Virus record (IMG/VR): IMGVR_UViG_3300048881_000780
Length of the DNA stretch: 64,000 nt
DNA from: a virus
Taxonomy: Duplodnaviria > Caudoviricetes
Direction: 5' to 3' (one strand)
This document shows positions 2,239 to 63,838 of this stretch, one piece after another. Each line of letters begins with the position of its first letter. The first letter of the stretch is position 1. The notes below the pieces were generated by a model. The model was given only the letters and a program-made list of their open reading frames with translations, made no database searches and was not told where the DNA came from. The position numbers and the translations under genes are program-made.

Positions 2239-2586
2239 ATGGGATTACTAAATAACAAAAAGCGTTTTAAGAGAAAGTTACTAGAAATACTAAGAGAAGG
2301 TCGAGAAGAGTACTTCACTTCTTGTGACATCTATGAAGTTGATAAGATTTCTCCTTTAGACTCTTATATCCTGAAAGTTGAAGCATTAGAAAAGATCAAA
2401 TCACTATACAAAAAGGGCGATATTATTCAAAAGAGTAACTCCAGTCCTACGCTACAGTTTAAGTGGTCAGAATTAAGTCTTGCTAGGATTGAAGATGGTG
2501 AATTTATCACCTATTTCAATTTTTTACCAAAAGGTCATAAAAAATACATAAAAGTTCCTATCTTCCTAAAATTTTACGATAAATAA
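2239..2586 (+). CDS. Hypothetical protein
   Basis: 115-aa ORF; TATAAT 9 nt upstream. Confidence 0.65.
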   Translation: MGLLNNKKRFKRKLLEILREGREEYFTSCDIYEVDKISPLDSYILKVEALEKIKSLYKKGDIIQKSNSSPTLQFKWSELSLARIEDGEFITYFNFLPKGHKKYIKVPIFLKFYDK

Positions 2587-2600
2587 GTAAAGGAAGTATT

Positions 2601-4181
2601 ATGTTAAAAATGTATTTTGATTTTAGAATCGCAAATGTAAAGAAGGTGATCAACTTGTCACCATCAAGTTTTCAACTAATTGATGCCAGAATCGTCAATA
2701 AGTCTGTTTTTGATAAATCTCAAATTGCAGATAGTAAAAAGCTATTGGATCCGAATGTTCAGGAGATCTCTAAAATGTTCCCTGAAGCGCAAAAGAAAAT
2801 CAAAAGTCATCTTAAACAAGGTCTTGATGGAAACGTTAGACAAAATGTTGTGGAAGAGATTAACGCTGCATTAGATGACTACCAGAAAAATGTAGATCAG
2901 GCCATTATGCTTTTTAGTGAAATTACTGGTGTAAGTGATGATATCGAAAGAGAGCAGGCCGCATGGTCAAAAATGCTTGTTACAATTAAAGGTCTCTTAG
3001 ATAAAGTTCTAACTGATTCTAACCCAGCTGAAGCTCTATATACTGCGGCGAAGATGTTCTTTGATAAAAGTACGGAAATGTCGGAGTTTTTAAATAAAGA
3101 GATTAAGCAGATTGAAAACCTTCTTGGTTATAAGAATAATGAGCGTGGACTACTTGCTAGTTTTACTGTTGATCTAGAAAGTCACGAACTTGTTCCAACA
3201 ATTAGAGATATTAAAGTTGCTGGTTGGGATGCTCATACATCTAACAGCGAATACGAAGGACTTGTTCTAAATAGAGCACTTGAAGCTTCTATTGCTGATA
3301 AAATCGATAAAGTTGTACAAATTGAAAAGCAAGTTAGTAAGATTTCCAAAGATGAGAACGAATTTAATCTTGGTGAGTATTGTGACATCTTTCATGAGAA
3401 CTCAAAAATTTGGGCAGAGTCGATTCTTTCTTTAGATACATGGACACGTCATATTTTAAGAGCTCGTATTGGTGCCGAGAAATATGCCAATGTATTTAAG
3501 AATCTTGAGAAATCAGGAAATAATATTTTAAAGATTAATCAAAAGATGGCAGATATCCTAAAAGAAGAGAATGTTACTCCTGAAACGTTTAATAAAGTAT
3601 TTACTGGTTTTAGAAACTTTTCTCCAATTAAGAAGTTTATTGAAGATGATTTTTCATTAGATGACTGGATCAAGAGAGGAGATGACTCTCTAAGAATGAT
3701 TAGTGATAGCTCGACTCATGTGAATGTGATTCCTCTAGTAAGTCTTCCAGAGGTTTATAAGGTATTAACTAGTAAGGAGATCCCGTCTCAAGATGTGGCA
3801 AGATTGTATACTGAATCATCTGATGCTGTAATGAGCAATCTTATGGAAGATATGGGTATCCAAAAACAAAGACAAGATATGGCCATTTATGGAACTAAAG
3901 ATAATGTTTACGGTGTAATTAAAAGACGCAAGCATTTAGATAAAACTGGTAAGAATGTATTCGAATTTGTAACTTTCTCTTGTGACAAAAGAGAAGCTCG
4001 TGATCTAGCTGGGAAAAAGGTTAAATCTGCACTTGAAGAAAAATTTAGAAATAAGAAGAGTTTTAACTCTAAAAACAGTTCTTTCTCTGTTGGTCAAAAG
4101 TACAAGATTAATGGAAGAGAGTTTTTAGTGACTATTCCTTTTTTCGTAAAGCAGGGATTTTGCCAGATCGATACTATCTAA
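2601..4181 (+). CDS. Hypothetical alpha-helical protein (526 aa)
   Basis: Long ORF, AAGGA RBS, upstream TACGATAA box; no motif recognised. Confidence 0.8.
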   Translation: MLKMYFDFRIANVKKVINLSPSSFQLIDARIVNKSVFDKSQIADSKKLLDPNVQEISKMFPEAQKKIKSHLKQGLDGNVRQNVVEEINAALDDYQKNVDQAIMLFSEITGVSDDIEREQAAWSKMLVTIKGLLDKVLTDSNPAEALYTAAKMFFDKSTEMSEFLNKEIKQIENLLGYKNNERGLLASFTVDLESHELVPTIRDIKVAGWDAHTSNSEYEGLVLNRALEASIADKIDKVVQIEKQVSKISKDENEFNLGEYCDIFHENSKIWAESILSLDTWTRHILRARIGAEKYANVFKNLEKSGNNILKINQKMADILKEENVTPETFNKVFTGFRNFSPIKKFIEDDFSLDDWIKRGDDSLRMISDSSTHVNVIPLVSLPEVYKVLTSKEIPSQDVARLYTESSDAVMSNLMEDMGIQKQRQDMAIYGTKDNVYGVIKRRKHLDKTGKNVFEFVTFSCDKREARDLAGKKVKSALEEKFRNKKSFNSKNSSFSVGQKYKINGREFLVTIPFFVKQGFCQIDTI

Positions 4182-7555: not shown

Positions 7556-9967
7556 ATGAAAAAACGTTCTGTAATTAAAAGAGACGGAAGTCAAGAAGAG
7601 ATTAAATTATCCAAAATTATTGAAAGGGTTGAGGCATTAAGTGAAGGACTTGATGTTCAGACTGATATTGTTGCTCAGAAAGTTATTGAAAAGGTAATCG
7701 ATGGTATCACTTCTAAGCAAATTGACCAAGAGATTGCTTTAACTGCGTTCTCTATGGTTTCGGAACATAATCACTACTCATACCTAGCTAGTAAAATTCT
7801 AGCTAGCTCTCTTCACAAGGAAACACCTGGTTTTTATCAAGGTATGAAAATTTTAATCAAAAATGAAGTTGTAGATAAGAAGTATGAACCCGTAATTAAA
7901 AAAATTGGAAAGAAGCTTGAAAAAGCTATTCAATACGACAGAGATCTTACTAATTTTGATTTTATTGGTTTAAAAACATTGGTAGACAATAGTTATCTAC
8001 TAAGGTTAGAAAAAGGTGATTCTAAAGTAATTATCGAAAGACCTCAAGATATGTATATGAGAGTTGCTATTCAAATTCACTGCGACTTTGATAAGAAGGA
8101 TTTTGGAGTTAACGAGATTATCGAGGAGTACAACTTTATTTCTCAAAAAGCTGGTACATACGCTACTCCTACCTTATTTAATAGTTGTACCAAGAGGCCA
8201 CAACTTTCATCTTGTTTCCTCCTTCAAACGGACGATGATTCTATCGAAGGAATTTATAAGACAATGAGTGATACAGCTAAAATTTCTCAATCTTCAGGTG
8301 GTGTGGGACTTGCTGTTCATAATATTAGATCTAAAGGTTCTCGTATTGTTGCATCTAATGGTGTTTCTAACGGTATTGTGCCTATGCTTAGAGTGTTTCA
8401 AGAGACTGCTCGTTATGTAGATCAAGGTGGAGGAAAAAGAAAAGGTAGTTTTGCTATTTACTTAGAACCTTGGCATAAAGATATTGTAGACTTTATAGAC
8501 TGTTCTAATAAACATCTTCCAACTAAAGCTTGTCCAGATTTGTTTACTGCTATCTGGGCTAATGACTTATTTATGGAGAGAGTTGAAAAAGATCAAGAAT
8601 GGACTTTGTTTTGTCCAAATGAACTAAAAAAGAATCATAATGTAGATTTATCTGAGTTATATGACTCACCTGACTCTAAAGACTTTTCAGAAGCATATCT
8701 AAAACTAGAAGAACTAGGTTTTGGTACAAAAATTATGGCAAGAGAGATTTGGGCCAAATTTTTAGAAGCAAATGCAACTTCTGGTCGTCCATATGTAGTA
8801 TTTAAAGACTCTTGTAATCATAAATCAAACCAAAAGAATCTAGGAACAATTAAGAGTTCTAATCTTTGTGCTGAAATTATCGAATATATTTCTCCTGAAG
8901 AGGTGGCGGTGTGTAATTTAGCTTCTATTTCTCTAGTTAAGTATATTACTGGTGAAGGAATTGAGGCAAAAGTAGATAAGGAAGCTCTTGGTAAGGCTGT
9001 AAAGAGATTTACTAAAGGACTTAATAAAATTATTGATATTAACTACTACCCTCTTCCTGAGATGGTTAAAAGTAATAAGAAGAATCGACCAATTGGACTT
9101 GGTGTTCAAGGACTAGCAGATGTATTTTTAATGTGTCATGCTCCATGGGGAAGCGAAAGATCTAGAGTTATTCAAAGAGATATTTTTGAAACTATTTATT
9201 ATTACGCACTTGAAGCATCTATGGAAGTTTCAAAAGTTGATGGTGCCTATGAAACTTTTGAAGGTTCTCCAGCCTCTAGAGGAGAGCTTCAGTTTGACTT
9301 CTATGATCATCAAAATGACAGCAAGATGTATCAATTTATTGGTAAATCAAATGACTTCGACTGGAACGCTCTTAAAGAAAAAATCAAGAAGCATGGATTA
9401 AGAAACAGTCTACTAGTTGCTTGTATGCCAACAGGATCTACTTCGCAAATGCTAGGTAATTTTGAAGGAATCAACCCTTTTCAAGAGAATATTTTTACAA
9501 GAACGCTTCTCAATGGAGAATACCAAGTCGTAAATAGACATCTAATTAGAGATCTACAAAAATTAAATATTTGGAGCTCTTCTGTTAAAAATTCTATTAT
9601 TAGAAATGGTGGTTCAGTTCAAGGAATTGAAGATATCCCAGCTCACTTACGTGAGATTTATAAAACATCATATGAAATTGGTAATAAGAATTTGCTTACA
9701 CTTGCGGCAGATAGGCAAAGATTTATTTGTCAGTCTCAATCAATGAATTTATTTACTTCTGATAATGATGGTAAGAAGTTAACAAAGGCCATACTCTACG
9801 CATGGAAAACAGGTCTTAAAACGGGTAAATACTATCTATATCAAAAAGCTCGAGTCCAAGCTGCGATTATCAATACTGAAGTTAAAGAAAGTCTAACTGA
9901 TGAAATATTAAGTGGCAAGAATGATCCTAATGAGGATCTTGATGATTGCTTAATGTGCGGAGCTTAG
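7556..9967 (+). CDS. nrdA: Class Ia ribonucleotide reductase alpha subunit with ATP cone
   Basis: VIKRDG ATP cone, ATPTLFN, QLSSCFL, SSNLCAEI, AVCNLAS, MPTGSTSQ, KTGKYY, C-terminal CLMCGA. Confidence 0.98.
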   Translation: MKKRSVIKRDGSQEEIKLSKIIERVEALSEGLDVQTDIVAQKVIEKVIDGITSKQIDQEIALTAFSMVSEHNHYSYLASKILASSLHKETPGFYQGMKILIKNEVVDKKYEPVIKKIGKKLEKAIQYDRDLTNFDFIGLKTLVDNSYLLRLEKGDSKVIIERPQDMYMRVAIQIHCDFDKKDFGVNEIIEEYNFISQKAGTYATPTLFNSCTKRPQLSSCFLLQTDDDSIEGIYKTMSDTAKISQSSGGVGLAVHNIRSKGSRIVASNGVSNGIVPMLRVFQETARYVDQGGGKRKGSFAIYLEPWHKDIVDFIDCSNKHLPTKACPDLFTAIWANDLFMERVEKDQEWTLFCPNELKKNHNVDLSELYDSPDSKDFSEAYLKLEELGFGTKIMAREIWAKFLEANATSGRPYVVFKDSCNHKSNQKNLGTIKSSNLCAEIIEYISPEEVAVCNLASISLVKYITGEGIEAKVDKEALGKAVKRFTKGLNKIIDINYYPLPEMVKSNKKNRPIGLGVQGLADVFLMCHAPWGSERSRVIQRDIFETIYYYALEASMEVSKVDGAYETFEGSPASRGELQFDFYDHQNDSKMYQFIGKSNDFDWNALKEKIKKHGLRNSLLVACMPTGSTSQMLGNFEGINPFQENIFTRTLLNGEYQVVNRHLIRDLQKLNIWSSSVKNSIIRNGGSVQGIEDIPAHLREIYKTSYEIGNKNLLTLAADRQRFICQSQSMNLFTSDNDGKKLTKAILYAWKTGLKTGKYYLYQKARVQAAIINTEVKESLTDEILSGKNDPNEDLDDCLMCGA

Positions 9968-15392: not shown

Positions 15393-15483
15393 TATTAACA
15401 CCTCATGTTATATATTTTAACATATTTACGACTAAGCTCCCGAAATTATTTTTCACTACGATAAATAAAACAAGGAGCATTTA

Positions 15484-16155
15484 ATGAAAAAAATATTATT
15501 ACTAATTACGCTTATAACTGCTTGGAATTCTGTTGCGAGCGATATATATCAATGTTCTCTCAAGAGTAAATCTAAGCAAATGATATATATCCAGGGAAAA
15601 AAGATCGGCTCTCACAATAAGAAGTACATAATCTCTGTTTTCGCTGAGATGATTGATTCTAACTATATTGAACTTGAGAAAAGATCTATTATTGCTGTTA
15701 ACTCTAGTGCGTGCGTAAATATTGAAAGCGTGGATTCTAGGGAGTGGATTGAAGTTGATGAAAACCTTAATCCTATTGCAGTGGATAGTAAGAAAAGTGA
15801 AAAGAAGAATGCTTCACAAGTAGGAACTACAAGCAAAAAGAAGGAAACTCAAATTTCTAATTGGGATGATATCAGAAAGGACTTTAATGTAGTTTCAAAG
15901 AAAACTAAAGAACAAGTAAAAAAGACTGTTGATGTAGTTAAAAGAAAAACTACTTCTAAAAAGGATCAAAATGTAGCTAAAGAAAAGAATGATGTAAAGA
16001 AGAGTAATAACGTAGGATCTATATCTCCTAAAAATAATAAGATTAAAAAAGTAACCAGTAGAGAGAAACAGAAAAACATACTAATTTTAATAGTTATATT
16101 TAGCTCTTTCTTGTTGCTTTTTTTGAATTATAAGAAGAAGAAGGAGAAGTTCTAA
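15484..16155 (+). CDS. Exported protein with Lys-rich stalk and C-terminal membrane anchor
   Basis: Signal peptide, C-terminal hydrophobic helix followed by KKKK; AAGGAG RBS. Confidence 0.75.
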   Translation: MKKILLLITLITAWNSVASDIYQCSLKSKSKQMIYIQGKKIGSHNKKYIISVFAEMIDSNYIELEKRSIIAVNSSACVNIESVDSREWIEVDENLNPIAVDSKKSEKKNASQVGTTSKKKETQISNWDDIRKDFNVVSKKTKEQVKKTVDVVKRKTTSKKDQNVAKEKNDVKKSNNVGSISPKNNKIKKVTSREKQKNILILIVIFSSFLLLFLNYKKKKEKF

Positions 16156-17376: not shown

Positions 17377-17418
17377 TTATTACGATATATTATTTATAAT
17401 ATATCAAAAGGAGCTAAT

Positions 17419-17853: not shown

Positions 17854-17941
17854 TAGATCTCTAGCACTCTCTTTCCTGCTATAATCAAACTTAACACTAA
17901 ATGTTAAAGTTAAAGCGCCTTAGGGCAAAGTTGAGGTTAAA

Positions 17942-45721: not shown

Positions 45722-45723
45722 CT

Positions 45724-48266: not shown

Positions 48267-48284
48267 TTATATCCAACAGGTGTT

Positions 48285-48413: not shown

Positions 48414-48549
48414 TTAACCTCCATTTCTTTAATTATCGTAAATTAAAAACTTTCAAGACTTACCCCTCTTAGCGTTTACATATTTAATAACGTTAGCAAG
48501 CGTTTATAAAACCACTAACGCTTTTTACGATAATCTAATTGAGGTTTTT

Positions 48550-48699
48550 ATGAAAAAGTCAGTTAGAGAATTGTTAAGATTACTAATATTGGAAATTGAT
48601 CAACAAATTGAGGTGGCCAAAGAGACACACGATTTATTTCATTTAAAACAAATGAAAAGGCTACGAAGACACATAATAGAACTTATGGATTCCACGTAA
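48550..48699 (+). CDS. 49-aa small helical protein MKKSVRELLRLLILEIDQQIEVAKETHDLFHLKQMKRLRRHIIELMDST (not in ORF track)
   Basis: GAGG RBS and TACGATAA box 16 nt upstream. Confidence 0.65.
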   Translation: MKKSVRELLRLLILEIDQQIEVAKETHDLFHLKQMKRLRRHIIELMDST

Positions 48700-48778
48700 A
48701 GTACTCTAATTACTGACAATGGCGCCTAGATTACATGATTTCTTAGTTTCGTGATAAAATATATTTAAGGGAGTATTT

Positions 48779-48985
48779 ATGGATGTCGCTGATAAAATTC
48801 ATGAATTATACAGGAAGTCTAGACTAGAAATGAATGCTAAAGATACTAATTCATTTATTGCTTCAATAATTTCAAATTGCCTATACGATAATAAACACAA
48901 TTCCGAGCAGTTTAAAATAGATCTACTCAAAGAGATCGAGGATTCTATAAAAGTGATTGAAAAAACCTATAAGAACGGTTCTTGA
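48779..48985 (+). CDS. Small hypothetical protein (paralog of 33470..33676)
   Basis: GGGAG RBS; sequence similarity to the paralog. Confidence 0.7.
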   Translation: MDVADKIHELYRKSRLEMNAKDTNSFIASIISNCLYDNKHNSEQFKIDLLKEIEDSIKVIEKTYKNGS

Positions 48986-49364
48986 TTTTGATAGGTATTT
49001 GTATTGACCAGAAAAAGAAGCAAAATCTCATTTAGAAATAACATTACAAAACTTTCTTTAAAAAGAATTTTGAATCTCACCAAGACTTTTCATTAGCCCT
49101 AAAAAAAGAGCTTTCAAGTATGATTTTTATTGTAAAAAACGATCCCAAGTTCAATGGGGACAAATCTTTATATACATATTTTCAAATGAAGCTACTAGGA
49201 ATAATAAAAATCCAAAAGACTTCAGTGATAACTTACTCCGTAAAATTTATGATTCCTATAATGCTGATGATTCAAATATCAAATGCTCAGAAAACCATAA
49301 TAGATCAAATATGAGCATTTAAACTCGCTCAAGTGTCTAAAATTACGATAATTATATAAGTAAT

Positions 49365-49394
49365 CTTGCAAGCTGTTGCAAGGTGCGTTATAAT
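49365..49394 (+). promoter_or_regulatory. Sigma-70 promoter with palindromic operator over -35
   Basis: TTGCAA-N17-TATAAT; CTTGCA-agctgt-TGCAAG. Confidence 0.7.
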
Positions 49395-49406
49395 TAAGGA
49401 GTTGTA

Positions 49407-49703
49407 ATGAATGATGTAATAGAACTAGAAAGAGATGATTTTGTTCTAATTAAAAATAAGCTTGTTAAGAGAATAGAGATTTCCGACGAGTCTAAAAAGA
49501 ATATCAGAATCTCAAATGACAAAATTGTTTCAATGTTTGTGAGTTACTATAATTATAAAAGCATTGAACCTATAGGAGAAATTGATTCTGTTGGTTACTT
49601 CGTTGATACTATTAATTTTCAAGAAAGATCTTATACTCTTTCTTTTATTTTTAGATACCAATCAGGAACGATTATTATAGAAGAGATATTTTTGGAGATT
49701 TAA
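49407..49703 (+). CDS. Putative toxin of toxin-first TA module 2
   Basis: Paralog of 45422 (IELE..F....LVKRIEI.D...SND.I...GYF.D...FIF.Y.S.TI.IE). Confidence 0.55.
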   Translation: MNDVIELERDDFVLIKNKLVKRIEISDESKKNIRISNDKIVSMFVSYYNYKSIEPIGEIDSVGYFVDTINFQERSYTLSFIFRYQSGTIIIEEIFLEI

Positions 49704-49704
49704 T

Positions 49705-50040
49705 ATGTTTACAAAGGAAGAAGAGAGCCTCATCAAGAAATGTAAAGGGAAAATAAAGAAAGGAGAAGCTCTTGCCTCTCAGTCTGGAATGCATATGGAT
49801 ACTCTTAATGGCAGATTTAAAACATCTATTGTCAGTATGTTAATTGGTTATAAACATGAAAATAACTTAACAAATGTAGAGCTATCAAAGAAAATGAAGA
49901 TCTCAGAATCTCAAGTATCTAGAATATTGGCCTATCATCTAAAAAGTATATCTCTTGATTACTTAGTTGATTGCATTGATCGACTAGGAATGAATGAGAC
50001 TCACCTACTCTCTCTAAAAATCAAAAAGTCTGTCGCTTAA
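49705..50040 (+). CDS. XRE/HigA-like HTH antitoxin 2
   Basis: LTNVELSKKMKISESQVSRILAYHLKSISLDYL. Confidence 0.75.
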   Translation: MFTKEEESLIKKCKGKIKKGEALASQSGMHMDTLNGRFKTSIVSMLIGYKHENNLTNVELSKKMKISESQVSRILAYHLKSISLDYLVDCIDRLGMNETHLLSLKIKKSVA

Positions 50041-50068
50041 ATACTCAGATTGTAGAAGTCAGATGATG

Positions 50069-50437
50069 CTAGCTTTTAACCTTCCATACTCGAACAGGCT
50101 TTCTAAAATTTATTGCCTGATCTACTCCAGGTAAATTACTACCCCATGACCAAAATGGAGCTTCCTTCATTTCTGTTAGTAACACCAGCTTATTTGTCAT
50201 CTCTGATTTGTCACATCCACCGCTAGTTAGAGATATACTACGCTCTCTTAAAATATATTCTCCATTGCTGGTTTGATATTCATCTCCGTCTTCCCAAAAG
50301 TGCATAATTCTAGAAACGGAACCATCTTCCTTTATGACATACTCCCCTATCATTGGTTCACTATCCTCACACCTATCTAGATAGTTTTGATAGTGCTTAT
50401 CGATTATCTCTTGGTCGTATTTACTCATTTTTTTCAT
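50069..50437 (-). CDS. Hypothetical plasmid-type protein
   Basis: 122 aa; GGGAG RBS; TACGATAA box. Confidence 0.7.
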   Translation of the reverse strand: MKKMSKYDQEIIDKHYQNYLDRCEDSEPMIGEYVIKEDGSVSRIMHFWEDGDEYQTSNGEYILRERSISLTSGGCDKSEMTNKLVLLTEMKEAPFWSWGSNLPGVDQAINFRKPVRVWKVKS

Positions 50438-50496
50438 TAAGAATCTCCCTTGAGTTACTTATCGTAACTTTACGATAAGATAGAAAAGGAGGCTTG

Positions 50497-51015
50497 ATGA
50501 GCTTTATAAAATATAATGATTTTTTTAGAAAATTTAACCTAGTAAAAGATTTATCAGATTTACCAAGAGAGCTTTCTGATAAAATAAAGTCGGAAGATAT
50601 AAGATGTGAGATCGAATATAGAGATAATTATATTTCCTTTCAGTTTAAATCAAAAAGTTTAAAACATGTCGAAGATTGGATATCTAAAAACCCTGGCAGT
50701 ATGCATATAGGATGTCTAACTATCGAAGATAGAGTATTTAGCTATCACAACCATCAGAGAACAGCCAATAGAGAGTATGCATTTATTATTCTTGGAGAGG
50801 TTGATAAATTTTTAAGCACTTGTCAGCTAGATGAAGACCTAATTGATGAAATAGATATCTTAGAAAGTGAACTTGATGTAGCTTCCACTAACAGTGAAGA
50901 AAAAGAGTTGATCAACGAGATATTATCAAAATCTCGAGACATTTTAAAATGGGAGCATAGCTCAGATGAAAATATGGGTTATGCCAGAAAATATATATCT
51001 AAATACGAAAGTTAA
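50497..51015 (+). CDS. Hypothetical protein
   Basis: AGGAGG RBS; TACGATAA box. Confidence 0.75.
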   Translation: MSFIKYNDFFRKFNLVKDLSDLPRELSDKIKSEDIRCEIEYRDNYISFQFKSKSLKHVEDWISKNPGSMHIGCLTIEDRVFSYHNHQRTANREYAFIILGEVDKFLSTCQLDEDLIDEIDILESELDVASTNSEEKELINEILSKSRDILKWEHSSDENMGYARKYISKYES

Positions 51016-51121
51016 TTATACATACATACGCGATAGGTTCTCTTTTTTAATTCATGTATATGTATGTATATTTTAAATTTATTAGATATTTAAGCTCTCT
51101 AAATATACATTAAAAAGAAAA

Positions 51122-51703
51122 TCATACTTCTATCTTTTTATTTTCATGTATATTTGTATTGATTTTATTTTCGGCCTCTTCTCTTGATATATTTAGATTA
51201 TCCATGAGAACTTTAATTTCTTTATTCTTAATTCGCTCAACCCTTTTAAGTTTGTCACAATCTTTACAAGAGGATCTTCTGTTTTTTAATCCATGGCTAT
51301 CAATAACAAAATCATCAATATGTTTTGGTAAATTACAAACGGAGCATATTTTCTTATCTGTTTGCAAATTACTTAATGCAACTTTTCTAGCGTCACCTAT
51401 AGATAAATTTCTTTCACTTGCTATTGATTTTACTAAAGACTCTAGAGAAGAATTAATTCTCTTTTTCTTATCGCATTCTTTACAGGATGACCTTCTACCT
51501 TTCTTACCATTTTTATCGACGACAAAATCATTTAGATTTAGTATTTGCTGACAAGATGAGCACTTCTTTGCACCTAAGATCTCTTGCTTAGTTATTGAGC
51601 TTGATGATTCGTGATGAAAGATCTTATTGTTATTTATAAAAGACATTAAATCTTCGAACTCTTTATCACTTTTAAACATGAATGAAATAGTCTTATTAAT
51701 CAT
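51122..51703 (-). CDS. Tandem zinc-finger protein (two CxxC...DF..D..G...RRSSCKxC modules)
   Basis: Internal duplication; finger similar to 43510..43824. Confidence 0.75.
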   Translation of the reverse strand: MINKTISFMFKSDKEFEDLMSFINNNKIFHHESSSSITKQEILGAKKCSSCQQILNLNDFVVDKNGKKGRRSSCKECDKKKRINSSLESLVKSIASERNLSIGDARKVALSNLQTDKKICSVCNLPKHIDDFVIDSHGLKNRRSSCKDCDKLKRVERIKNKEIKVLMDNLNISREEAENKINTNIHENKKIEV

Positions 51704-51803
51704 TCGTTAGAAATAGCGTGAAACGAATATAATGGCAATTAGTACTGTAGTATTTTCAATAAATTAGTTCTAGCTTATTAAATTATAACGAGTTAAATGA
51801 CAT

Positions 51804-52526
51804 TTATTCGTCATCAAAGAAGAGTTTTTCAAACTCTTTGTAGGCCGAAATATCTCTGTGGACCCAGATTCCTTCGGAGTTTTCAGCATCCTTTTTACAG
51901 TAAATAACTTCCATATTGTACTTGTTTCCATTTAAATTATATTCACAATTCGTTATTAAAACTTTACCAGACATTGAAGTCCCTTCTTTCCACATCGTTT
52001 TTGCAGTTTCCTTTCCTACCAAATAACCACTTGGAACAACTTGTTGATCAACACCAAGTAAGTCCATTAAACTTTGAGAAAGTCTTGTCTCATCGGGATT
52101 TGAGAAGTTTAAGTCATATCTATTAAAAGAGGGATCTTTAATTATTGATTTAATAGAAGAGTTTTGAAACTCCATCTGCTCCATCATCTCAACACAGTGA
52201 AAGAAGTTGTAAATATCCGACTCTGAGTACTGATTAATTGAAAAGAATTCCTTGGCCTCACTTTTTGAAATTGAATAGATTTCATAATTTTTTAAAATAC
52301 TCTCACCTTTGCAAATTTCAGAAAGAGAGAGATTTAATACTTTGCAAATATCGGATAGTACTTTTATCTTAGGCGCAATTTCTCCGTTTTCAATTCTTTG
52401 ATAACTTCTGAGGCTAATATTGACCTGAAAGGCCACTTCCTCTTGAGTGAGTCTGTGAAATTTTCGACTTCCAGATAATCTAATCGCTATCGATTTTAAA
52501 AAACTATTTATTGCGGCCTTGTTCAT
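51804..52526 (-). CDS. XRE HTH regulator with PAS-like C-terminal domain
   Basis: LTQEEVAFQVNISLRSYQRIENGE; C-terminal GIWVHRDIS. Confidence 0.8.
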   Translation of the reverse strand: MNKAAINSFLKSIAIRLSGSRKFHRLTQEEVAFQVNISLRSYQRIENGEIAPKIKVLSDICKVLNLSLSEICKGESILKNYEIYSISKSEAKEFFSINQYSESDIYNFFHCVEMMEQMEFQNSSIKSIIKDPSFNRYDLNFSNPDETRLSQSLMDLLGVDQQVVPSGYLVGKETAKTMWKEGTSMSGKVLITNCEYNLNGNKYNMEVIYCKKDAENSEGIWVHRDISAYKEFEKLFFDDE

Positions 52527-52583
52527 GTATTGTCTATATCTCAAAATATAGACTATTCTACAAGGAATAAAGATCAAACGGGC

Positions 52584-52979
52584 TTATTCATCAGGTTCTT
52601 CATCGCTGTTATCAATAACTGTAGTTGGAATATTCAATAAAATATCCGAATCGCTCTTTAAATTTTCTTCAGCCTCTTTGATTTTAAATAAGAAATGATG
52701 AAGATCTCGAATAGATCCATTTAGATGTTGTGAATACTGCTCGAACTCTCTCGTTTCTACATTTTTTAATAAATCCTCTATTGAGTAATTTAGAATATTG
52801 CAAAGTTTATTTAATGTTTTTAACTTGGGAGAAAAGCTTCCCTGCTCTAAAAGTTTTAGATTTTTAACTGAAATTCCAACTTCTTTAGAAACGTACTCTT
52901 CAGTTAAATTTAATTCCAATCTTCTCTCTTTTAACTGAGAGGAAAGTAACTCCAGAAGTTCACTATAAGACTCTTCCAT
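52584..52979 (-). CDS. XRE HTH regulator
   Basis: LKERRLELNLTEEYVSKEVGISVKNLKLLEQG; AGGAGG RBS before ATG 52979. Confidence 0.8.
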   Translation of the reverse strand: MEESYSELLELLSSQLKERRLELNLTEEYVSKEVGISVKNLKLLEQGSFSPKLKTLNKLCNILNYSIEDLLKNVETREFEQYSQHLNGSIRDLHHFLFKIKEAEENLKSDSDILLNIPTTVIDNSDEEPDE

Positions 52980-53083
52980 ATGATCCTCCTTCAATAGAGT
53001 ACCTATGTAGTAATTATCGAGGTAAACAGAGGTAGACACAAGGAATAATAAAGTTTCCACACCTAAATATTTCTAAAGTTTTG

Positions 53084-54268
53084 TTAGTATTTAATATCTT
53101 TAGTTATTGAAGTTTTGGAGTCCCTATCCGTGTCAACGTATTTTATTGTCTGATTTGATGATTGTGTATGAAAAGTGCTAGAAAGAGTTGGCATATCACA
53201 AGTTTTACTAAGCTCTGTGATTACTAACGTTCTTAGAGAGTGAGGCCTTTGGTACGTCTTATCTATCTTGTCACAAAATGCGGAGATCGCCTTTCTTAAG
53301 TAACCCGTTGTTATTCTCTTATAGTTTCCGTTCTTTGATCTTCTATGTAGCGTCTGCAAGAAGCTTTCATAGATCCTAGTCTTTCTTTGTTTTAATCCAT
53401 TACAATCCGGACACTGATGAGAATCAAAACTTTCAAACTCACATAGCTCACAAATGAATCCATTAATATAATGTCTTGCTGATAATATCTCTTCTTTACT
53501 TCTGGCCACATATCCCTTATATCTCGCTCGAGAGACTAATCTTTTTTCAAATAGTTCTAACTGATCTAAGTATTGATCGAGTGCTTCTAAGGCGCTGTCT
53601 GAAAGAGTGAAGATTCTTTCTAGGTTAGTTTTCTTTTCTTTGAACTTAAAATAGAAGTCACCTTCTTCAGAATATTTTAAATCATTAAAACTCATTCTAA
53701 CCAAGTCGATAGATCGCATACCAGTATAGGATAGAAAGAGAATTGCAAATCTTCCGAACATTTCTTTATACGTTAATATATCTAAATCTTTAAATTCAAT
53801 AATCTCTGTAATGACATCTTTATCGGCCTTAGCAGTTAAAATCCTACCAACATCTCTAATATCTTTAACTTTTTTTACAACTTTAACTGGATTGGATTTT
53901 ACGATATCTAAATCTTCAGCAATTTGATAAAACGATTTAATTATATTTATCTCAAGATTTCTCGTTGTAGGTGCCCCACTTCTTGTTTCAAAATAAAGAA
54001 GTGCCTGCTCCTTAGTAACCATATCAAATTTAACTTCATGGCATTCAAAAAAATCTAACCATCTAGAAATTGCTCGATCATAATTTCTTCTAGAGTTTTT
54101 ATTTTTAAGTCTATTAAAGATATGAACTAAGACTGTTGCTAACCTTGGTTGATTTTTTAAGAAGGAAAGTGATGACAAATCACTAAGTTCTCTTTGTGTG
54201 CTTATCTCTAATTTTTTAACAACTTGATTCATGGTAAAAAGATCCAGGTAGATAAGTTGCATCCCCAT
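53084..54268 (-). CDS. XerC/D-like tyrosine recombinase with Zn-ribbon insertion
   Basis: YTGMRSID (R), KEKKT (K), PHSLR (HxxR), terminal TIKY (Y); CELC...CPDC insert. Confidence 0.9.
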   Translation of the reverse strand: MGMQLIYLDLFTMNQVVKKLEISTQRELSDLSSLSFLKNQPRLATVLVHIFNRLKNKNSRRNYDRAISRWLDFFECHEVKFDMVTKEQALLYFETRSGAPTTRNLEINIIKSFYQIAEDLDIVKSNPVKVVKKVKDIRDVGRILTAKADKDVITEIIEFKDLDILTYKEMFGRFAILFLSYTGMRSIDLVRMSFNDLKYSEEGDFYFKFKEKKTNLERIFTLSDSALEALDQYLDQLELFEKRLVSRARYKGYVARSKEEILSARHYINGFICELCEFESFDSHQCPDCNGLKQRKTRIYESFLQTLHRRSKNGNYKRITTGYLRKAISAFCDKIDKTYQRPHSLRTLVITELSKTCDMPTLSSTFHTQSSNQTIKYVDTDRDSKTSITKDIKY

Positions 54269-54704
54269 GACTAGATAGTATCTTAACTAACTTCCATTTT
54301 AATTCGTGATTTTTGAAATCTTCTAAAGGGGAACCTGACTCGAGATAATGAAGTATTTCTAAAACAGTAAAAAGAGATGAATAAGACTCTCTAATTTCCT
54401 CTTGATCACCTTTTTTTAAAGATTGCTCATATATTGAAATACGTAATTTTATTTCTTCTAATTGTTTTATCTCAAGTTCTTTGGCCTTTTTAGCGTAATT
54501 ACTTAAATATTTAATGATTGAGCCATCCCCAGCATTTTTTCTAAAAACTCTTGGATCCAATTCTTTTTTAAAGCTTTTAAAATTACTATAGACGCTTTGC
54601 GACAATTGAGCATGAAGAGAGTATGTTTTATGTAACTTGCTGTTTTTAGGCTTTTTAATGGATTTAAGATCACTCAATAGTTCTGAAATTTGTACTTCAT
54701 TCAT
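54216..54704 (-). CDS. Hypothetical protein overlapping the recombinase start
   Basis: 162 aa; TAGAAT-N7-ATG. Confidence 0.65.
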   Translation of the reverse strand: MNEVQISELLSDLKSIKKPKNSKLHKTYSLHAQLSQSVYSNFKSFKKELDPRVFRKNAGDGSIIKYLSNYAKKAKELEIKQLEEIKLRISIYEQSLKKGDQEEIRESYSSLFTVLEILHYLESGSPLEDFKNHELKWKLVKILSSHGDATYLPGSFYHESSC

Positions 54705-54797
54705 AAGTAATATTCTATCTCCAATTCTCTATAAGTCCAAATGCCTTTTTAAAATTTTTGTCTCCAAAAAATTATAATAATCAAAATAGGAGTAAAT

Positions 54798-57700
54798 ATG
54801 TTCACTAAAAGATTATTATCAATCATTTTAACCTCATTCCTTCTTACAGGATGTGTAAAACCCACAAATAACAATAAAGGTCCAAGCGTATTAAACGAAA
54901 TTGAAGAAACTAAATCAGAGCAATATATCTCTGTTATTGTTAATTCTAATTACAAAGTTATAGATTCAATAGCTAACTTGGGTTCCAATATCGGTTGGTC
55001 ATCTAGAGTCCTTGATATTTGTGAGATCAGAGAAAATGCTGGTAATTATGAAGTTAGATTAAAGGACGGACTCAGCTTTACGAAAGATACAATCATTTTC
55101 GCAAACGCAAACGATAAACTTGTTGGTTTTATGTTTGAAGGTGTTGAAGATGTTGGAGGCACTTTAAATGGAGTTATTGTAGATATCGCTCCAGAAATTA
55201 GTCAGATTATCAGTATTCCTATCGTTAGCGAAAGTGCTCCATCTGTTAACTTAAGATCTCCAAAAATAAAAATCATTTTAGATGGAGAAACAGTTCCTCA
55301 AACGTACACAGGCTTATCAATTACTTCAAGAGGTAGAATCAGTGTCCCAAAAGATATAGGTGGAGAAGTAATTATTGAATCAAACCGTAGAGAATACGGG
55401 AGATTTACTTTAACTAGGTTTGGACCAGGTTCTCTAGTTATGCCTGATCTTATTCCGGAATTCAATCCAACGGCCATAACATTATCAACAGATGAAGATG
55501 TAACTGAAGCATTTCAAATTCCTGAGGCATCTTTTCCAGCCGTCGGAGTACAGGAGTATGAAGTTAGAGATAATCCAACTAATGGAACACTAGCTTGTAC
55601 AAATAGAGATTGTTCTTACACTCCAAACCCTGGATTTGTGGGGGTGGATACTTTTTCAGTAAGAGCGTTTTTAGATAGATCACCTAGTGAGCCACTAGTG
55701 TACACAATGAATGTTCTAGACACTCCAGATAATCCGATCCTTGAGGATGCAAATCTTGTTGTTACTGATGAAAATACTCCTGTAGCTTTTAATTTAGCTA
55801 ATGCAACTGATCCAGATGGTGATGTAAATTTAACATACACAATTGTTTCTCCACTTGGAGCGGGAGACGGAACTCTTACATGTTCTGTAATGCCAGCTTG
55901 TAATTATACTCCAGTGAATGGATTTGTTGGCGAAGTAAGTTTCACATTAAAAGTAACTGACTCGACAGGCTTAGATTCTCAAACTAAGATTCAAAGAATT
56001 CAAGTTAACAATGTTAATGATGCTCCTGTTTTAGATGACCCTGTATTAGTTGAAACAAATCAAGCAACACCTGTTACATTTAATCTACCATCAGCAAGTG
56101 ATGCTGATGGTGATGCAATAACATATTTCAAAGAGAGTGATCCTTCTAATGGCGGAATAAGCTGTAATTTATCAGCTAATCCAAAGACTTGTACTTATTC
56201 TCCAAATATTTCATTTGTTGGTGATGACTCTTTTTCTATTTACGTTGAAGATTCAAATTCTGCTAGATCTGCATCTAAAACTATAACAATAAGAGTTCAT
56301 GACGTTAACGAGGCTCCAACAATCGCAGCTCAAAGCGTTGCCTACTCTACGAATGAAGATACTACTCTAACTGGAATGCAATTACCTCTAGGTAGTGACC
56401 CAGACGGAGATGCTGTTAGACATGTAGTTGTCACTAATCCAGCAAACGGATCAATAACTTGTTCAAATTCAGGGCTATGTAATTATACTCCATCTCTAAA
56501 CTTCAATGGTACAGACACTTTGCAAGTAAAGGTAACTGACGAATCACTTGATTCAGAAATTAGAGATATCACAATTACTGTAAACCCAATTAATGATGCT
56601 CCTGAGTTATCTATTGCGTCGGGACCTGTTACAACTCCTGAAAACACTCCAGTCACATTTACAATCCCAATGACCGCTTCTGATGTAGATAACACTCAAG
56701 GTGAATTAACATGGAATGTTTCGGCCCCAGTAAATGGATCGATTGACTGCTCAAGTGCTCCAAGTTGTACTTATACTCCAAATAACTCATTTATAGGAAG
56801 TGAATCTTTAGATATTTATGTTTCTGATTTAGAGCCACTATCTTCAATAACAAGATCTCTAACGATTGATATTACAAATGTAAATGATGCCCCAGTGCTA
56901 GAGGAAATGGCCGGAGCAGTTATAACTAACGAAGATACTTTAGTTAATTTTCAACTACCAAATGCAAGTGATGCAGATGGAGACTCTCTTACATGGTTAG
57001 CTCACACTCAACCAGCTAACGGGACTCTATCTTGTAATGCTTCTGGAAATTGTGATTATACTCCATCTCTAAATTTTAACGGAGCAGACACATTTAAAGC
57101 AAAGGTTAATGATGGTTCACTAGATTCAAATATTGTTGATGTATCCATTACTGTTAATCCAATTAATGATGCCCCTGAATTATCTGTAGCCTCAAATGCA
57201 ATCAATACTCCTGAAGATACGCCGATTACTTTTACAATTCCAATGACTGCTACAGATGTAGATAATGCTCAAGGTGAATTAATATGGAGTGTTTCGGCCC
57301 CAGCGAATGGATCGATTGACTGTTCAAGTGCTCCAAGTTGTACGTACACTCCGAATTTAAACTTTGTGGGATCAGAAAGTTTATCTATTTCAATTTCAGA
57401 TCTTGAACCACTATCTTCTTCAGTTAGAACTCTAGAGATCAACGTTTCAAACTCAAATGATGCTCCAGTTCTGGCCTCTGTTTCAGATTTATCAACTGAT
57501 GAAGATCAGTCGGTTGATTTCACATTATCTGCAACTGACGCCGATGGAGACGCAATTAGTTATCTAGTTGAGTCACAAGGTGGTAACGGTTCAGTTTCTT
57601 GTGTAGATGAAAACTGTACATATACTCCAAACCTTAACTTTAATGGATCTGACTCTTTCCAGATGAAAGCAAATGATTCAACTGTGGATTCAAATATTAT

Positions 57701-60143: not shown

Positions 60144-60169
60144 GAAGACTGGGGTTAATCCCAGTCTTC
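60144..60169. terminator. Hairpin between convergent genes, overlapping the FtsK stop
   Basis: GAAGACTGGG-gttaat-CCCAGTCTTC. Confidence 0.65.
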
Positions 60170-63100
60170 TTCATTGTCGTCATCAATATCACCGAACTCA
60201 TCTTCTTCATCTTCAGTAAATTGGTTAAAATCTAATGGAATATTTTCCTCTTTATTATTTAGATATTCTTCATGATCTACATCAAAATCATCGTCAGAAT
60301 TTTTCTTCTTCTTGTATCCCATCATTGTAGCAAGATCATCAGATGAAATCTCTTCGCTATCATTCTCTTCTTCAAATAAGCTATCAAATCCAACAGGTGA
60401 AGAATTCTTATGTTCCGCTTCAGTTATAAAATCATTAATATCTTCGTGTTCGATTATTTCAATATAGTCGATTTTATCCGCTTCATGTCTTAATTGAACA
60501 GTCATTCCACCCATTAAATAAACTACAATCTTTCTAAACTCGAACCCGTCATCAAGATGTTGTCTTCTTAAATAAACCAAATGATCTACAAACTTGGTAT
60601 CTAATTTTGAGGCCCCATCTAGATCTAGACATATAATGCCATCGCACATCTTCGTTTCAGCAGATACCCATCTAATCAAATCAACATCTTTTTGAAATGA
60701 CTTTTTTCCACTTAGATCCTTAAGGTTTCCTTTACTTCTTTCATTTTTAGCAAACTCAGTATTAAAACCTCTTAAATCTTCTAATCTCTTAACCCATGCA
60801 GGAAAATACTTTCCTCTTTTCATTGGCCTTATTTTTTCTGGAATTTCATAGATATCATCTACAAATGTTCTATTAAAATTGTAAATATCTTCTTTTATAT
60901 TTGAATCACTTAGAATTATAATCCCTTTACTGTTTGCGTACTCAATAGCATCTTTTTGAAATTTTCCAGTTGTTACAAAAATAAATCTTTCAAATTCAAT
61001 GCCACACATATCCCTATATAGATCAATGGTCTTTAGAACCTTTTTTAAGTCATCTTTGTTGCTGGCGCTAGTAGGTCTATTTTTACACTGAATTCCAACT
61101 GCTTTCTTGTTTTTTCTATCTGTCCAGTACAGTAGATCTAGACCGGAATCTCGACCACCTTTATGAACTTTAGAGCTTAATATTCCTCTAGATTTTAACT
61201 CATCGGTTGACTCGACATCCTTCCCTTGTTTTCTTAAGAATGAAGCATACCACTTCTCAAAAAGAGGGCCTTTATCTTTAGTCTTAGTTGTTTTTAACTT
61301 TTCATATTCTTTTAAATTGATTTGATCATCAACTTTTTCATCACTTTGTTGAATAGCGATAATGTCTGAAGACTTTTGTTGTGGCTCTATTAATCCCCAA
61401 AAAATTGGTTCCTTTATTTGGTCACCTTGATTTTTAATGGCCTTAAGTAGTGGCTTATTGTAATCAAGAGGTGTTAAAACTTCACACGAGTTTGCAGTCG
61501 TATCTATTAGATCTAGGGCCGACTTTACTTGGGAGTTTTTAAGAGTTTTAAACATATAGATAATTTTATGATCACTAACAAGCTTTCCTTCTGAGTCTTT
61601 ATCTATTTCAATATAACCTTCCTTAATGACTCTATCGTTAAACCTAATGTCAACTTCATCTCCATTTAAGATTGCCAGAGCATACTTTTTGCCAGTTTTT
61701 TCATTTTTAAAGAATAGACTAAATGAGTAGTACTGAGGGTTATAAGTCTTTAATACTTTATAATCCTCATGCTTAATGAATGCACTCAGAACCATATTAA
61801 AAAATTTCTTGATATCCATTTTTTGAAAATCGATACCATCAAAACCTTTCTCAATAACAACCATGGCCCTATCGTAATCAGGAGTCTTAGCCATATCAAC
61901 TTTGCTCTCAATTCGATCTAGAGTCAGATTCATATTCTCACCTAAGTAAGGTTGATAAGCTGGAATAAGAGGCGATCTAGTTACTTTACACGTTAAATGG
62001 GGGCATTCTATGAGAGCTTCACCTGTCTTTAATTTCCCAGGTTCAAAACCAGAGAAGTCTACCTGAAGAACTTCCTTCATATATTTAATATCCCTACCAG
62101 TAATTCTCATAATAATACGTGTAGATAAGTTTGTAGCTAGTCTAGATGGAAATGTGGCCGCTCTAGCTTCCTGAGATGCTAAAATAGCACTTATTCCAAC
62201 TTTACGATATTGAGACAGGAATTCATGAAGTAATTGTGCTGGAGAACCGGGAGATTTAGAATTTGAATCAAACTGAAGAAATTCTGATAATCCTGCAAAT
62301 TCGTCAATAGCAACGATTATATGAGGCAACTTTTTTCCGGTAATTCTCTTGTAGTCTTGAATATTGGCACATGTAGTTCCGGTTTCAATTGAAACTTCTC
62401 TAAAAAGTGCAATCCTCTCTCTTTGTCTCTTTTGAACATATTTTAAAACATTTTGTACTTCCACAAGAGGATGAGAGGTGTCAGATCCTATGACTTTCCT
62501 AAATGATGTATGTCCAAATTTAGAAAATTTTTGGTGAATCGGATCGAATTCTTCTGAATCTGAACCGTTCCCGCAAATAATTTCAACTTCGGAACCATAT
62601 ACCTGTGCATGAAAAAGTAGCATACTTTTAAGATATTCAGACTTTCCCGAACCAGTAGTTCCTACTATCATTAAGTGAGGTGATAAATCTGAACTCACAA
62701 AAATTTCACCAGATGCGCTTCCGATATCAATAGAGCCATCGCGAACACCTCCAAAGTACCAGTGAAACTGATTTGTCTCTTTATAAAGTTTTTGAAGTTC
62801 TTTAACCGGCCCGTTAATCCAGTTGTCAAATTCTTCAGCAACAGTTGTTTCAACACACTTTTTTACATCTTTTTTAGTATGCAAAATATATGTATCTGGA
62901 TTATCTTGAGATTGACTCGCAAATGTATACTCAAATCTCTTTTCTTTTGTAGAGTATTCAATACTGAATTGTTCCATTGCTTTTTGTAGATCATCAATTT
63001 TAATACCTAAATTTCTACAGTCTAAATGAAGATCTCCATTGCTTTTTAATTCAATTGTTGGATATTTTCTATTGTATATTTCACCAAGAACTTCGTCATA

Positions 63101-63805
63101 AAAGAGTTTAAAGTCATCACATATTTTATGAAATCTTCTCTCTCTTTGGTCTTTTAGAGTTAAAAACTCTACTTCTAATTGTCCGTTCTTATTTGGTTTA
63201 ACTACACCATATTGAGATTTTCCAATCCTTAAATCATAAAGTCCTTGAATTAGAGTAGCATTATAGTTTTTTTCATTTTTTCTAAACTGTTGCATGGCCT
63301 CTTTTCTAATATTGAAAATAATTACCTTTTTACCTTGAACTTCAAATTGCGGATAATAGTCTCTTGTTTTTTTAATTGGTTTTCCAGTTTGATCAACCTT
63401 TGGTCTCTTAAAGAACCACCAACCTTCGAGAACATATCTGTCGGTCGTTTCTGAATATACGAGGGCCACAGAATTCATTAATTCAAAATATTGATCTAGA
63501 AAAGTCTTTTCTTTACTTGGAGCAAGCTTTATTAAAATTATACCGAGTAAAATAACTGCAAAAATTACTAAAAAAATAGGTCTCTCTTGAATTAATTTTA
63601 CAACTGGGAAATCCATGAAAATAACGACGTACTTCTTTAGAAGTTTAAAAAATGGTTTCATTATTGATGGAGATAGAAAGTGCTCTAACAAATCGCTGTC
63701 TACATATTTTACAAGAATCTTTCTGAAGCTCCTGTTAAATATATAGTTATAACAGAGACTAATATATCCAATAAATAGTGCTAAATAAAACTTAAAATAA
63801 TTCAT
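60155..63805 (-). CDS. Membrane-anchored FtsK/SpoIIIE-family ATPase fused to Mrr-like PD-(D/E)xK nuclease domain(s)
   Basis: TM helix; PHLMIVGTTGSGKS, IIVAIDEFA, ILASQ, TRI; FEKW...DSGLDLL...GIQCKN...IFVTTGKF..DAIEYA; acidic tail. Confidence 0.85.
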   Translation of the reverse strand: MNYFKFYLALFIGYISLCYNYIFNRSFRKILVKYVDSDLLEHFLSPSIMKPFFKLLKKYVVIFMDFPVVKLIQERPIFLVIFAVILLGIILIKLAPSKEKTFLDQYFELMNSVALVYSETTDRYVLEGWWFFKRPKVDQTGKPIKKTRDYYPQFEVQGKKVIIFNIRKEAMQQFRKNEKNYNATLIQGLYDLRIGKSQYGVVKPNKNGQLEVEFLTLKDQRERRFHKICDDFKLFYDEVLGEIYNRKYPTIELKSNGDLHLDCRNLGIKIDDLQKAMEQFSIEYSTKEKRFEYTFASQSQDNPDTYILHTKKDVKKCVETTVAEEFDNWINGPVKELQKLYKETNQFHWYFGGVRDGSIDIGSASGEIFVSSDLSPHLMIVGTTGSGKSEYLKSMLLFHAQVYGSEVEIICGNGSDSEEFDPIHQKFSKFGHTSFRKVIGSDTSHPLVEVQNVLKYVQKRQRERIALFREVSIETGTTCANIQDYKRITGKKLPHIIVAIDEFAGLSEFLQFDSNSKSPGSPAQLLHEFLSQYRKVGISAILASQEARAATFPSRLATNLSTRIIMRITGRDIKYMKEVLQVDFSGFEPGKLKTGEALIECPHLTCKVTRSPLIPAYQPYLGENMNLTLDRIESKVDMAKTPDYDRAMVVIEKGFDGIDFQKMDIKKFFNMVLSAFIKHEDYKVLKTYNPQYYSFSLFFKNEKTGKKYALAILNGDEVDIRFNDRVIKEGYIEIDKDSEGKLVSDHKIIYMFKTLKNSQVKSALDLIDTTANSCEVLTPLDYNKPLLKAIKNQGDQIKEPIFWGLIEPQQKSSDIIAIQQSDEKVDDQINLKEYEKLKTTKTKDKGPLFEKWYASFLRKQGKDVESTDELKSRGILSSKVHKGGRDSGLDLLYWTDRKNKKAVGIQCKNRPTSASNKDDLKKVLKTIDLYRDMCGIEFERFIFVTTGKFQKDAIEYANSKGIIILSDSNIKEDIYNFNRTFVDDIYEIPEKIRPMKRGKYFPAWVKRLEDLRGFNTEFAKNERSKGNLKDLSGKKSFQKDVDLIRWVSAETKMCDGIICLDLDGASKLDTKFVDHLVYLRRQHLDDGFEFRKIVVYLMGGMTVQLRHEADKIDYIEIIEHEDINDFITEAEHKNSSPVGFDSLFEEENDSEEISSDDLATMMGYKKKKNSDDDFDVDHEEYLNNKEENIPLDFNQFTEDEEDEFGDIDDDNEEDWD

Positions 63806-63838
63806 TAATTCCTCAGTGCTTATAATTCTCTTATCGTA

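Follow-up and report, generated by a model that had tools for sequence, protein, structure and literature searches.

Does the exact 8-base word TACGATAA, which recurs shortly before start codons along a 64-kb stretch of a plasmid-like element, define a promoter class of its own, and if so, which factor reads it? The stretch (IMG/VR record IMGVR_UViG_3300048881_000780; 64,000 nucleotides) was analysed over its whole length and is referred to below as the window; all counts, positions and promoter classes of the word, which we call the box, apply to this one window. Two DNA sequencing runs, both hydrothermal-vent metagenomes, and no listed RNA run carry the stretch, and the contigs from sequencing runs are identical to the window, with no sequence variation. 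An initial annotation, made from the letters alone, had proposed that the box is a -10-only promoter element of a dedicated regulon. Our analysis indicates that the box is probably a promoter element of a distinct class, and that its most likely reader is the RpoD-like sigma factor of 447 amino acids (aa) encoded by the element itself. For the two parts taken together, the box as a promoter class and this sigma as its reader, we put the chances at about even.

Occurrence of the box in the window

The box occurs 21 times in the window, where dinucleotide-preserving shuffles predict 2.56 copies; none of 100 shuffles reached 21, and the largest value obtained was 7. The distance to the following start codon was measured for every copy. 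Twelve copies lie on the same strand 15–25 nt before a start codon that is preceded by a Shine–Dalgarno (SD) sequence, which bears out the fixed distance before 12 start codons described in the initial annotation. Three further copies are more distal, at 32 nt from the ATG of nrdB and 55 nt from the ATG of each of two toxin–antitoxin-like (TA-like) operons, again as described there. When every copy was extracted with its flanks, the 15 coordinates and strands given for these sites all proved correct. The promoter-type copies are always oriented toward the downstream gene.

The 70-nt zones upstream of the 80 gene starts amount to 4.3% of the strand space. They hold 15 sense copies of the box, where a first-order Markov model predicts 0.24 (Poisson P ~3e-22; binomial P ~1.5e-16), and this is the positional and strand enrichment over background that had been named beforehand as a test of the proposal. 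Among all 8-mers in the zone from -45 to -8, TACGATAA ranks first (13 genes), the second being TTTATAAT (5 genes).

The six non-promoter copies are at 14998, 22625, 22832 and 48884 on the plus strand and at 34243 and 39810 on the minus strand. Three copies in coding regions (22625, 22832 and 48884) had been listed previously; those exist, but the total is six. Four of them read as in-frame Tyr-Asp-Asn/Lys codons. Two (within 22625–22839) lie in the gene for a 2062-aa Big_9/cadherin adhesin, where they encode in-frame Val-Tyr-Asp-Asn/Lys in repeated Ig-like domains, and the background count of the box is thus inflated by such coding repeats. There are 68 one-mismatch variants, nearly all intragenic, and the box is thus used in its exact rather than in a degenerate form. 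None of the variants makes a convincing promoter, TACGATAT at 17381 being a possible exception.

The promoter boxes are unevenly spread: the first half of the window (32 kb) has three and the second half 12, nine of which cluster between 42.8 and 50.5 kb. A simple operon rule gives approximately 49 transcription-unit starts for the window. A box is present at 14 of these, and 17 have only TA[TA]AAT within 40 nt; both TA-like operons have the box together with TA[TA]AAT.

Position of the box relative to the gene start

TATAAT or TAAAAT, often in the form TGnTATAAT, lies near the start codon of many other genes of the window. Distances between TA[TA]AAT and the ATG peak sharply at 15–19 nt, with nine cases in this interval compared with a background of about 1.5 per 5-nt bin. 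The distances to the ATG and to the GG of the SD sequence were compared between 12 such TA[TA]AAT promoters and the box class, using the Mann–Whitney test. In the TA[TA]AAT class the median distance is 18 nt for the ATG and 8.5 nt for the GG. Numbering the box from -15 to -8, which makes the following base -7, gives it medians of 18 and 8 nt, and it is then indistinguishable from the TATAAT class (p = 0.95 for the ATG and 0.88 for the GG). If instead the TACGAT within the box is numbered from -12 to -7, the medians are 21 and 11 nt and the two classes differ (p = 0.04 and 0.02, respectively).

Since the distances of the box to the SD sequence and the ATG equal those of TATAAT, the box appears to occupy the -10 position, and it most likely spans -15 to -8, in other words a rewired extended -10 element. 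In this favoured register, TACGATAAn is aligned with TGnTATAAT. The two have T-15, A-11, T-10, A-9 and A-8 in common, but not -14, -13 and -12. At -7 the T of the extended -10 is relaxed: the base right after the box is A at three sites, G at six and T at six. The spacing from the box to the GG is exactly 9 nt at 7 of 12 sites. In both promoter classes the inferred start is the A preceding AGGAG, which would give leaders of approximately 10–13 nt.

These comparisons bear on two earlier suggestions. The resemblance of the box to the -10 element of sigma-28 turns out to be more than cosmetic, in that the geometry fits the sigma-28 register better than a reading of TACGAT as TAnnnT. As for that second reading, in which TACGAT is a sigma-70 TAnnnT hexamer, TACGAT does retain T-12, A-11 and T-7, but the geometry of the register departs from that of the TATAAT class.

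We also note that the gene for the 2062-aa adhesin (20295–20314, start at 20312) and that for a major facilitator superfamily transporter (41272–42460, minus strand, start at 42438) show TATAAT-N6-ATG with no SD sequence. This is the geometry of a leaderless mRNA, and it agrees with transcription beginning 7 nt past the hexamer in the host.

Sequences upstream of the box

Across the 15 sites no column upstream of the box is conserved, apart from a weak T just before it. TTGACA-like matches at a spacing of 16–18 bp are at background level only at the 15 sites, in either register, and TAAA or TAAR at N14–16 upstream of the box is found at one of the 15 (null mean 0.6–0.8). Classical TTGACA-N16-18-TATAAT pairs are not enriched in the region 38000–55000, where 68 were found compared with 86.7 ± 8.8 in shuffles, and promoters lacking a -35 element therefore seem to be the local norm. 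The initial annotation had reported finding no consistent -35 element, and this holds. Its proposal of a -10-only promoter class is likewise supported, by the strand and position specificity of the box, by the site that it shares with TATAAT and by the missing -35 element.

The 447-residue sigma factor as candidate reader

The candidate reader of the box is a sigma-70-family protein of 447 aa (17942–19285, plus strand), an orphan with an RpoD-like fold and altered DNA-reading residues. Pfam identifies regions 2 and 4 in it, and region 3 is found only within full-length RpoD alignments. Its C-terminal part gives full-length alignments to RpoD and SigB/F/G models and weaker ones to FliA models, all far below the family cut-offs; compared with the E. 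coli proteins, it scores 82 bits for sigma-70 and 38 bits for FliA. An AlphaFold model (predicted local distance difference test score, pLDDT, 71) aligns over approximately 450–470 columns with the sigma-70 chains of holoenzyme structures. On the strength of this full-length alignment the N-terminal 210 residues look to be of the sigma-1.2/non-conserved region (NCR) type, without region 1.1. Its best relative among 5.8 billion proteins has 29% identity, over half of its length, and a tblastn search of plasmids and phages returned only distant rpoD-like genes.

In sigma-70, region 2.4 reads positions -12/-13, region 3.0 reads the TG at -15/-14, and region 4.2 reads the -35 element. Alignment with E. 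coli sigma-70 and FliA indicates that the motif of the A-11 pocket, FSTYAT (Y430), is kept in the 447-aa protein. Residues elsewhere are replaced, in region 2.4 (W433Q, R436N, A438K, T440Y and a gap at R441), in region 3.0 (H455D and E458N) and in region 4.2 (R584N, E585V, R586N, R588K and Q589I). The sigma-28 counterparts of these base-reading residues were taken from PMC12784957. Because base-reading residues are replaced, the encoded sigma is a plausible reader of the box, and it appears to have abandoned the reading of a -35 element. The box departs from TGnTATAAT at -14, -13 and -12, which are among the positions that the replaced residues read, and the changes are therefore consistent with box-only promoters. 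We consider the element's own RpoD-like sigma the most likely reader.

Several points weigh against this assignment. The sigma is linked to the box only by their co-location and by the residue changes. No exact box precedes the sigma gene, the nearest sequence being TACGATAT at 17381, one gene upstream. The group-1 architecture of the sigma and its apparently sigma-1.2/NCR-like N-terminus would suit a conserved T at -7, and hence the other register, that of TACGAT, so that the register from -15 to -8 is likely rather than certain. The purine found 8 nt after the box at 14 of the 15 sites is confounded by the SD sequence. Finally, no relatives of the DNA or of the key proteins, in which co-variation of sigma and box might be followed, were found in plasmid, phage, viral, metagenome or genome collections.

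The sequence TACGATAT (17381–17388) has one mismatch to the box and lies 13 nt upstream of the TATAAT of the gene for a secreted 144-aa protein, which directly precedes the sigma gene. It could represent weak feedback on sigma expression, or chance.

Promoter of the sigma gene and a proposed circuit

The putative promoter of the sigma gene (17877–17907, plus strand) consists of an extended -10 element, ccTGcTATAAT (TGcTATAAT at 17877–17885), followed after 5 nt by the operator-like 17-bp palindrome TTAACACTAAATGTTAA (17891–17907), which is one mismatch away from the element's palindromic operator. When all upstream regions of the window were compared, the palindrome was found at none of the box promoters. 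An operator that overlaps the sigma promoter and is missing from the box promoters suggests a cascade that leads from a repressor to the sigma and from there to the box regulon. Similar operator-like sites occur at 6587, 15395 and 17437.

We propose the following mechanism. RNA polymerase with an alternative sigma would bind the 8-bp word, which would span -15 to -8 as a rewired extended -10 in which TACGATAAn replaces TGnTATAAT. The DNA would melt at the A of GATAA, and transcription would start approximately 8 nt downstream, on a purine immediately before the SD sequence, so that the leaders would be very short. The reader would be the 447-aa sigma, whose own gene would be transcribed from the host-type TGnTATAAT promoter overlapped by the operator. 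Release of the repressor would allow the sigma to be made, and the sigma would switch on the box genes, namely nrdB, the gene for an FtsK-Mrr protein, the two TA-like operons and approximately ten orphan genes.

In evolutionary terms, an RpoD-architecture sigma may have given up -35 reading and had the specificity of its regions 2.4 and 3.0 changed from TGnT to TACG, forming an orthogonal module under a global repressor; we offer this tentatively, at a little less than even chances. Held with the same reserve is the corollary that such a module would use an exact 8-bp word of the extended -10 type that has converged on the sigma-28 -10 element, and that its mRNAs would begin on the SD sequence.

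Alternative readings of the box

The box might instead be a -10 element that is read by an alternative sigma of the host, of the FliA/sigma-28 type, the plasmid genes riding on a host regulon such as that of the late flagellar genes. TGnTATAAT without a -35 element resembles the promoter style of the Campylobacterota, a phylum common at vents, and would suit a host from that phylum. Six of the eight positions of the sigma-28 -10 element, GCCGATAA from -15 to -8, are matched by the CGATAA of the box, and -7 is likewise unconserved in that element (PMC12784957). The geometry of the box favours exactly this register, and in Campylobacter CGATwt alone is enough to define a sigma-28 promoter (PMC4626219). 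However, TAAA at N14–16 occurs at one of 15 sites, where the null expectation is 0.6. Moreover, all eight positions are invariant at the 15 sites, among them the TA at -15/-14 and the AA at -9/-8, in contrast to the degeneracy of natural FliA regulons. There are also no flagellar or chemotactic genes behind the box: a search for matches to flagellar and chemotaxis families among the box genes (nrdB, FtsK-Mrr, the HTH_37 pairs and the orphans) gave none. We regard reading by a host FliA as unlikely.

It is also conceivable that the box is read at the level of DNA but not by the 447-aa sigma alone. Host sigma-70 might act on a weak TAnnnT, together with an activator or appropriator of the element that contacts CGA/AA, or another factor encoded by the element might be responsible. 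The three bases that TACGAT keeps, T-12, A-11 and T-7, are key sigma-70 positions. Against this, the geometry of the TACGAT register is unlike that of the TATAAT class, no conserved activator site lies upstream of the box, and no candidate factor was found among the window proteins. We consider such an arrangement distinctly improbable.

A different kind of explanation is that TACGATAA acts in RNA, as a signal in the 5′ untranslated region before the SD sequence (a translation enhancer, or a site for a nuclease or an RNA-binding protein), with transcription starting further upstream. The epsilon enhancer of T7 gene 10 also lies just upstream of an SD sequence. The box is strand-specific, and its spacing to the SD sequence is so tight that we keep an RNA-level role alive at low probability. 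On the other hand, the TATAAT boxes of other genes stand at the same place, that is, at the -10 position, and no conserved promoter motif is found upstream of the box. The boxes before nrdB and the TA-like operons, at 32–55 nt from the ATG, have no fixed spacing to an SD sequence, which fits a promoter rather than an SD-linked RNA signal. In addition, a pair of divergent boxes only 4 bp apart stands in a gap of 56–59 bp between the genes, too short to hold other promoters. A promoter further upstream of either gene would fall within the one opposite, where no -10-like hexamer is present.

The remaining possibility, that TACGATAA is a chance or compositional artefact of AT-rich intergenic DNA, could appeal to the six plainly non-functional intragenic copies, four of them Tyr-Asp-Asn/Lys codons, but it is ruled out by the statistics given above: the shuffles, the 15 copies observed in upstream zones where the Markov model expects 0.24, and the invariably gene-ward orientation.

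The box sites and their genes

We next describe the individual sites, in their order along the window. The box at 2575–2582 (plus) falls within the 3′ end of the preceding gene, 18 nt before the ATG of an orphan gene of 526 aa (2601–4181). That at 15457–15464 (plus) is 19 nt before the ATG of a 223-aa gene (15484–16155) whose product has a signal-peptide-like N-terminus. The nrdB box at 19287–19294 (plus) begins 2 nt past the sigma stop codon and is 32 nt before the nrdB ATG (19327–20274). Boxes at 32423–32430 (plus) and 39540–39547 (plus) precede, by 21 nt and 22 nt, the ATG of a 100-aa gene (32452–32754) and of an open reading frame (ORF) of 64 aa (39570–39764), and the box at 42888–42895 (minus) is 19 nt before the ATG of a 99-aa gene (42569–42868, minus).

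The box at 46719–46726 (minus) is 17 nt before the ATG of a 209-aa gene (46072–46701, minus); this gene had been labelled ART-like, and we found no Pfam match for it. The box at 47247–47254 (plus) is 19 nt before the ATG of a 177-aa gene (47274–47807). The latter is flanked by repeats: a 46-nt repeat (1.9 copies, 47130–47217) lies directly upstream of its box, and an 11-nt tandem repeat, GGGAACCAAGC (6.9 copies, 47830–47906), lies just past the gene.

Two small putative genes had been predicted from the box, and an ORF with an SD sequence is present in both cases. One is a 42-aa ORF on the minus strand (48285–48413, start at 48413), with its box at 48433–48440 (minus), 19 nt before the ATG; the other is a 49-aa ORF on the plus strand (48550–48699, start at 48550), with its box at 48526–48533 (plus), 16 nt before the ATG. 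Directly upstream of the second box is a hairpin (AGCGTT, a 12-nt loop, AACGCT) with a run of TTTT (48497–48525), which ends right before the box. It looks like a terminator or insulator that abuts the promoter.

The divergent boxes discussed above stand back to back within 50459–50478, as had been reported. The minus-strand box (50459–50466) is 21 nt before the ATG of a 122-aa gene (50069–50437, minus), and the plus-strand box (50471–50478) is 18 nt before the ATG of a 172-aa gene (50497–51015).

The leaders of the two TA-like operons (45359–45421 and 49344–49406) share one layout, in which the box is followed by a palindrome with 7-bp arms and then by GGTGCGTTATAAT. In operon 1 (45422–46050) the box is at 45359–45366 (plus), 55 nt from the operon, the palindrome at 45379–45396 and TATAAT at 45403–45408; in operon 2 (49407–50040) the box is at 49344–49351 (plus), also at 55 nt, the palindrome at 49365–49382 and TATAAT at 49389–49394. 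The palindrome arms differ between the two leaders on both sides (CTTGTAG/CTACAAG and CTTGCAA/TTGCAAG). The shared layout suggests two putative tandem promoters with an operator between them.

The last box (63831–63838, minus) lies 25 nt before the ATG of a gene for a protein of 1216 aa (60155–63805, minus), which joins an ATPase of the FtsK/HerA type to an Mrr_cat nuclease domain. In PADLOC the ATPase matches mad8 and SspH-like models, and the domain composition is that of a defence-like architecture.

Gene content, search for relatives and significance

The genes of the window were annotated using Pfam, NCBIfam, PADLOC and PHROGs. Besides the FtsK-Mrr_cat gene and the one sigma-70-family gene, the window contains a replicon block with ParA, the class I ribonucleotide reductase genes nrdA (7556–9967) and nrdB, two giant Big_9/cadherin adhesins, a XerD-like recombinase, XRE regulators and many orphans. 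There are two paralogous TA-like pairs, each consisting of an orphan protein and an HTH_37 protein. PADLOC and PHROGs gave no common functional theme among the box genes.

A megablast search with 24 kb against plasmids and phages gave no match, nor did an exact 34-mer in viral and metagenome contigs. The sigma and Rep proteins have no relatives in viral contigs, and the best match to NrdA in genome contigs has only 32% identity. The pattern of a box with a TA leader had three matches in metagenome contigs, all of which we attribute to chance: two have a GC content of 55–56%, and the third (GC 34%) has a single box and no similarity to the window. A full-text literature search for TACGATAA returned only primers and unrelated sequences.

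The box provides a map of transcription units and their regulation for a giant plasmid that is otherwise unannotatable; approximately 30% of the transcription units in the window carry it. It names a candidate pair of sigma and promoter, and it flags orphan genes as probably co-expressed, including the TA-like pairs, the FtsK-Mrr protein and small proteins. If the pairing is true, it would show how a housekeeping-type sigma is re-specified in its upstream -10 reading, and would provide a compact, orthogonal promoter of 8 bp.

Comparison with known systems

The -10 element of sigma-28 is GCCGATAA at -15 to -8 (PMC12784957). Promoters of the sigma-28/FliA family resemble the box sites in the CGATAA core, which is present at 15 of 15 sites, in the inferred register and in the unconserved -7. 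They differ in that the box has TA in place of the GC of the extended -10 at -15/-14, no TAAA -35 element and non-flagellar genes behind it, and in that the sigma encoded by the element is not FliA-like, as its scores indicate. We do not place the box in the sigma-28 promoter family, since the -35 element, the gene content and the type of the candidate sigma all fail to agree.

The extended -10 promoters of sigma-70 (TGnTATAAT) are similar to the box in having a 9-bp element in the -10 region without a -35 element, and in the window they lie at the same distance from the SD sequence and the ATG. In contrast to them, the box reads ACG rather than GnT at -14/-13/-12, and its -7 is not conserved. 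An assignment of the box to this class was also rejected, as there is no TG at -15/-14 and no T-7.

Closer in kind are systems in which a mobile element provides its own sigma. SigN (ZpdN), encoded by plasmid pBS32 of Bacillus subtilis, is a plasmid sigma that has a regulon confined to the plasmid and is expressed from a host-sigma promoter under a repressor site (PMC6751061). In both systems there is a sigma on a large plasmid (here a candidate), with the sigma gene behind a host-type promoter covered by a repressor site, and the regulon includes genes of nucleotide metabolism (here nrdB). However, SigN promoters have both a -35 and a -10 element, whereas the candidate promoters here have a single 8-bp box; and SigN is controlled by LexA and activates its own gene, whereas the sigma gene of the window has an operator of the element's repressor and no exact box before it.

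The late promoters of phage T4 have the sequence TATAAATA at -13 to -6 and are read by gp55 (PMC1524935). They too consist of a short, near-invariant 8-bp element in the -10 region without a -35 element, they are read by the sigma of a mobile element, as we propose here for the candidate, and they mark a temporal or functional class of genes. The promoter word itself differs, and gp55, a minimal sigma, depends on gp33 and the sliding clamp, whereas the candidate here is full-length and RpoD-like, with homology in regions 2–4.

The window thus combines what characterises these mobile-element sigma systems: a uniform word at -10, in 15 exact and oriented copies, and a sigma whose DNA-reading residues diverge in regions 2.4, 3.0 and 4.2. 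A uniform promoter word of a mobile element that is served by an alternative sigma is a kind already known from T4 gp55 and pBS32 SigN. What is new here is the word itself, its probable nature as an extended -10 that has been rewired, its likely partnership with the orphan RpoD-like sigma, and the ultrashort leaders that this reading predicts.

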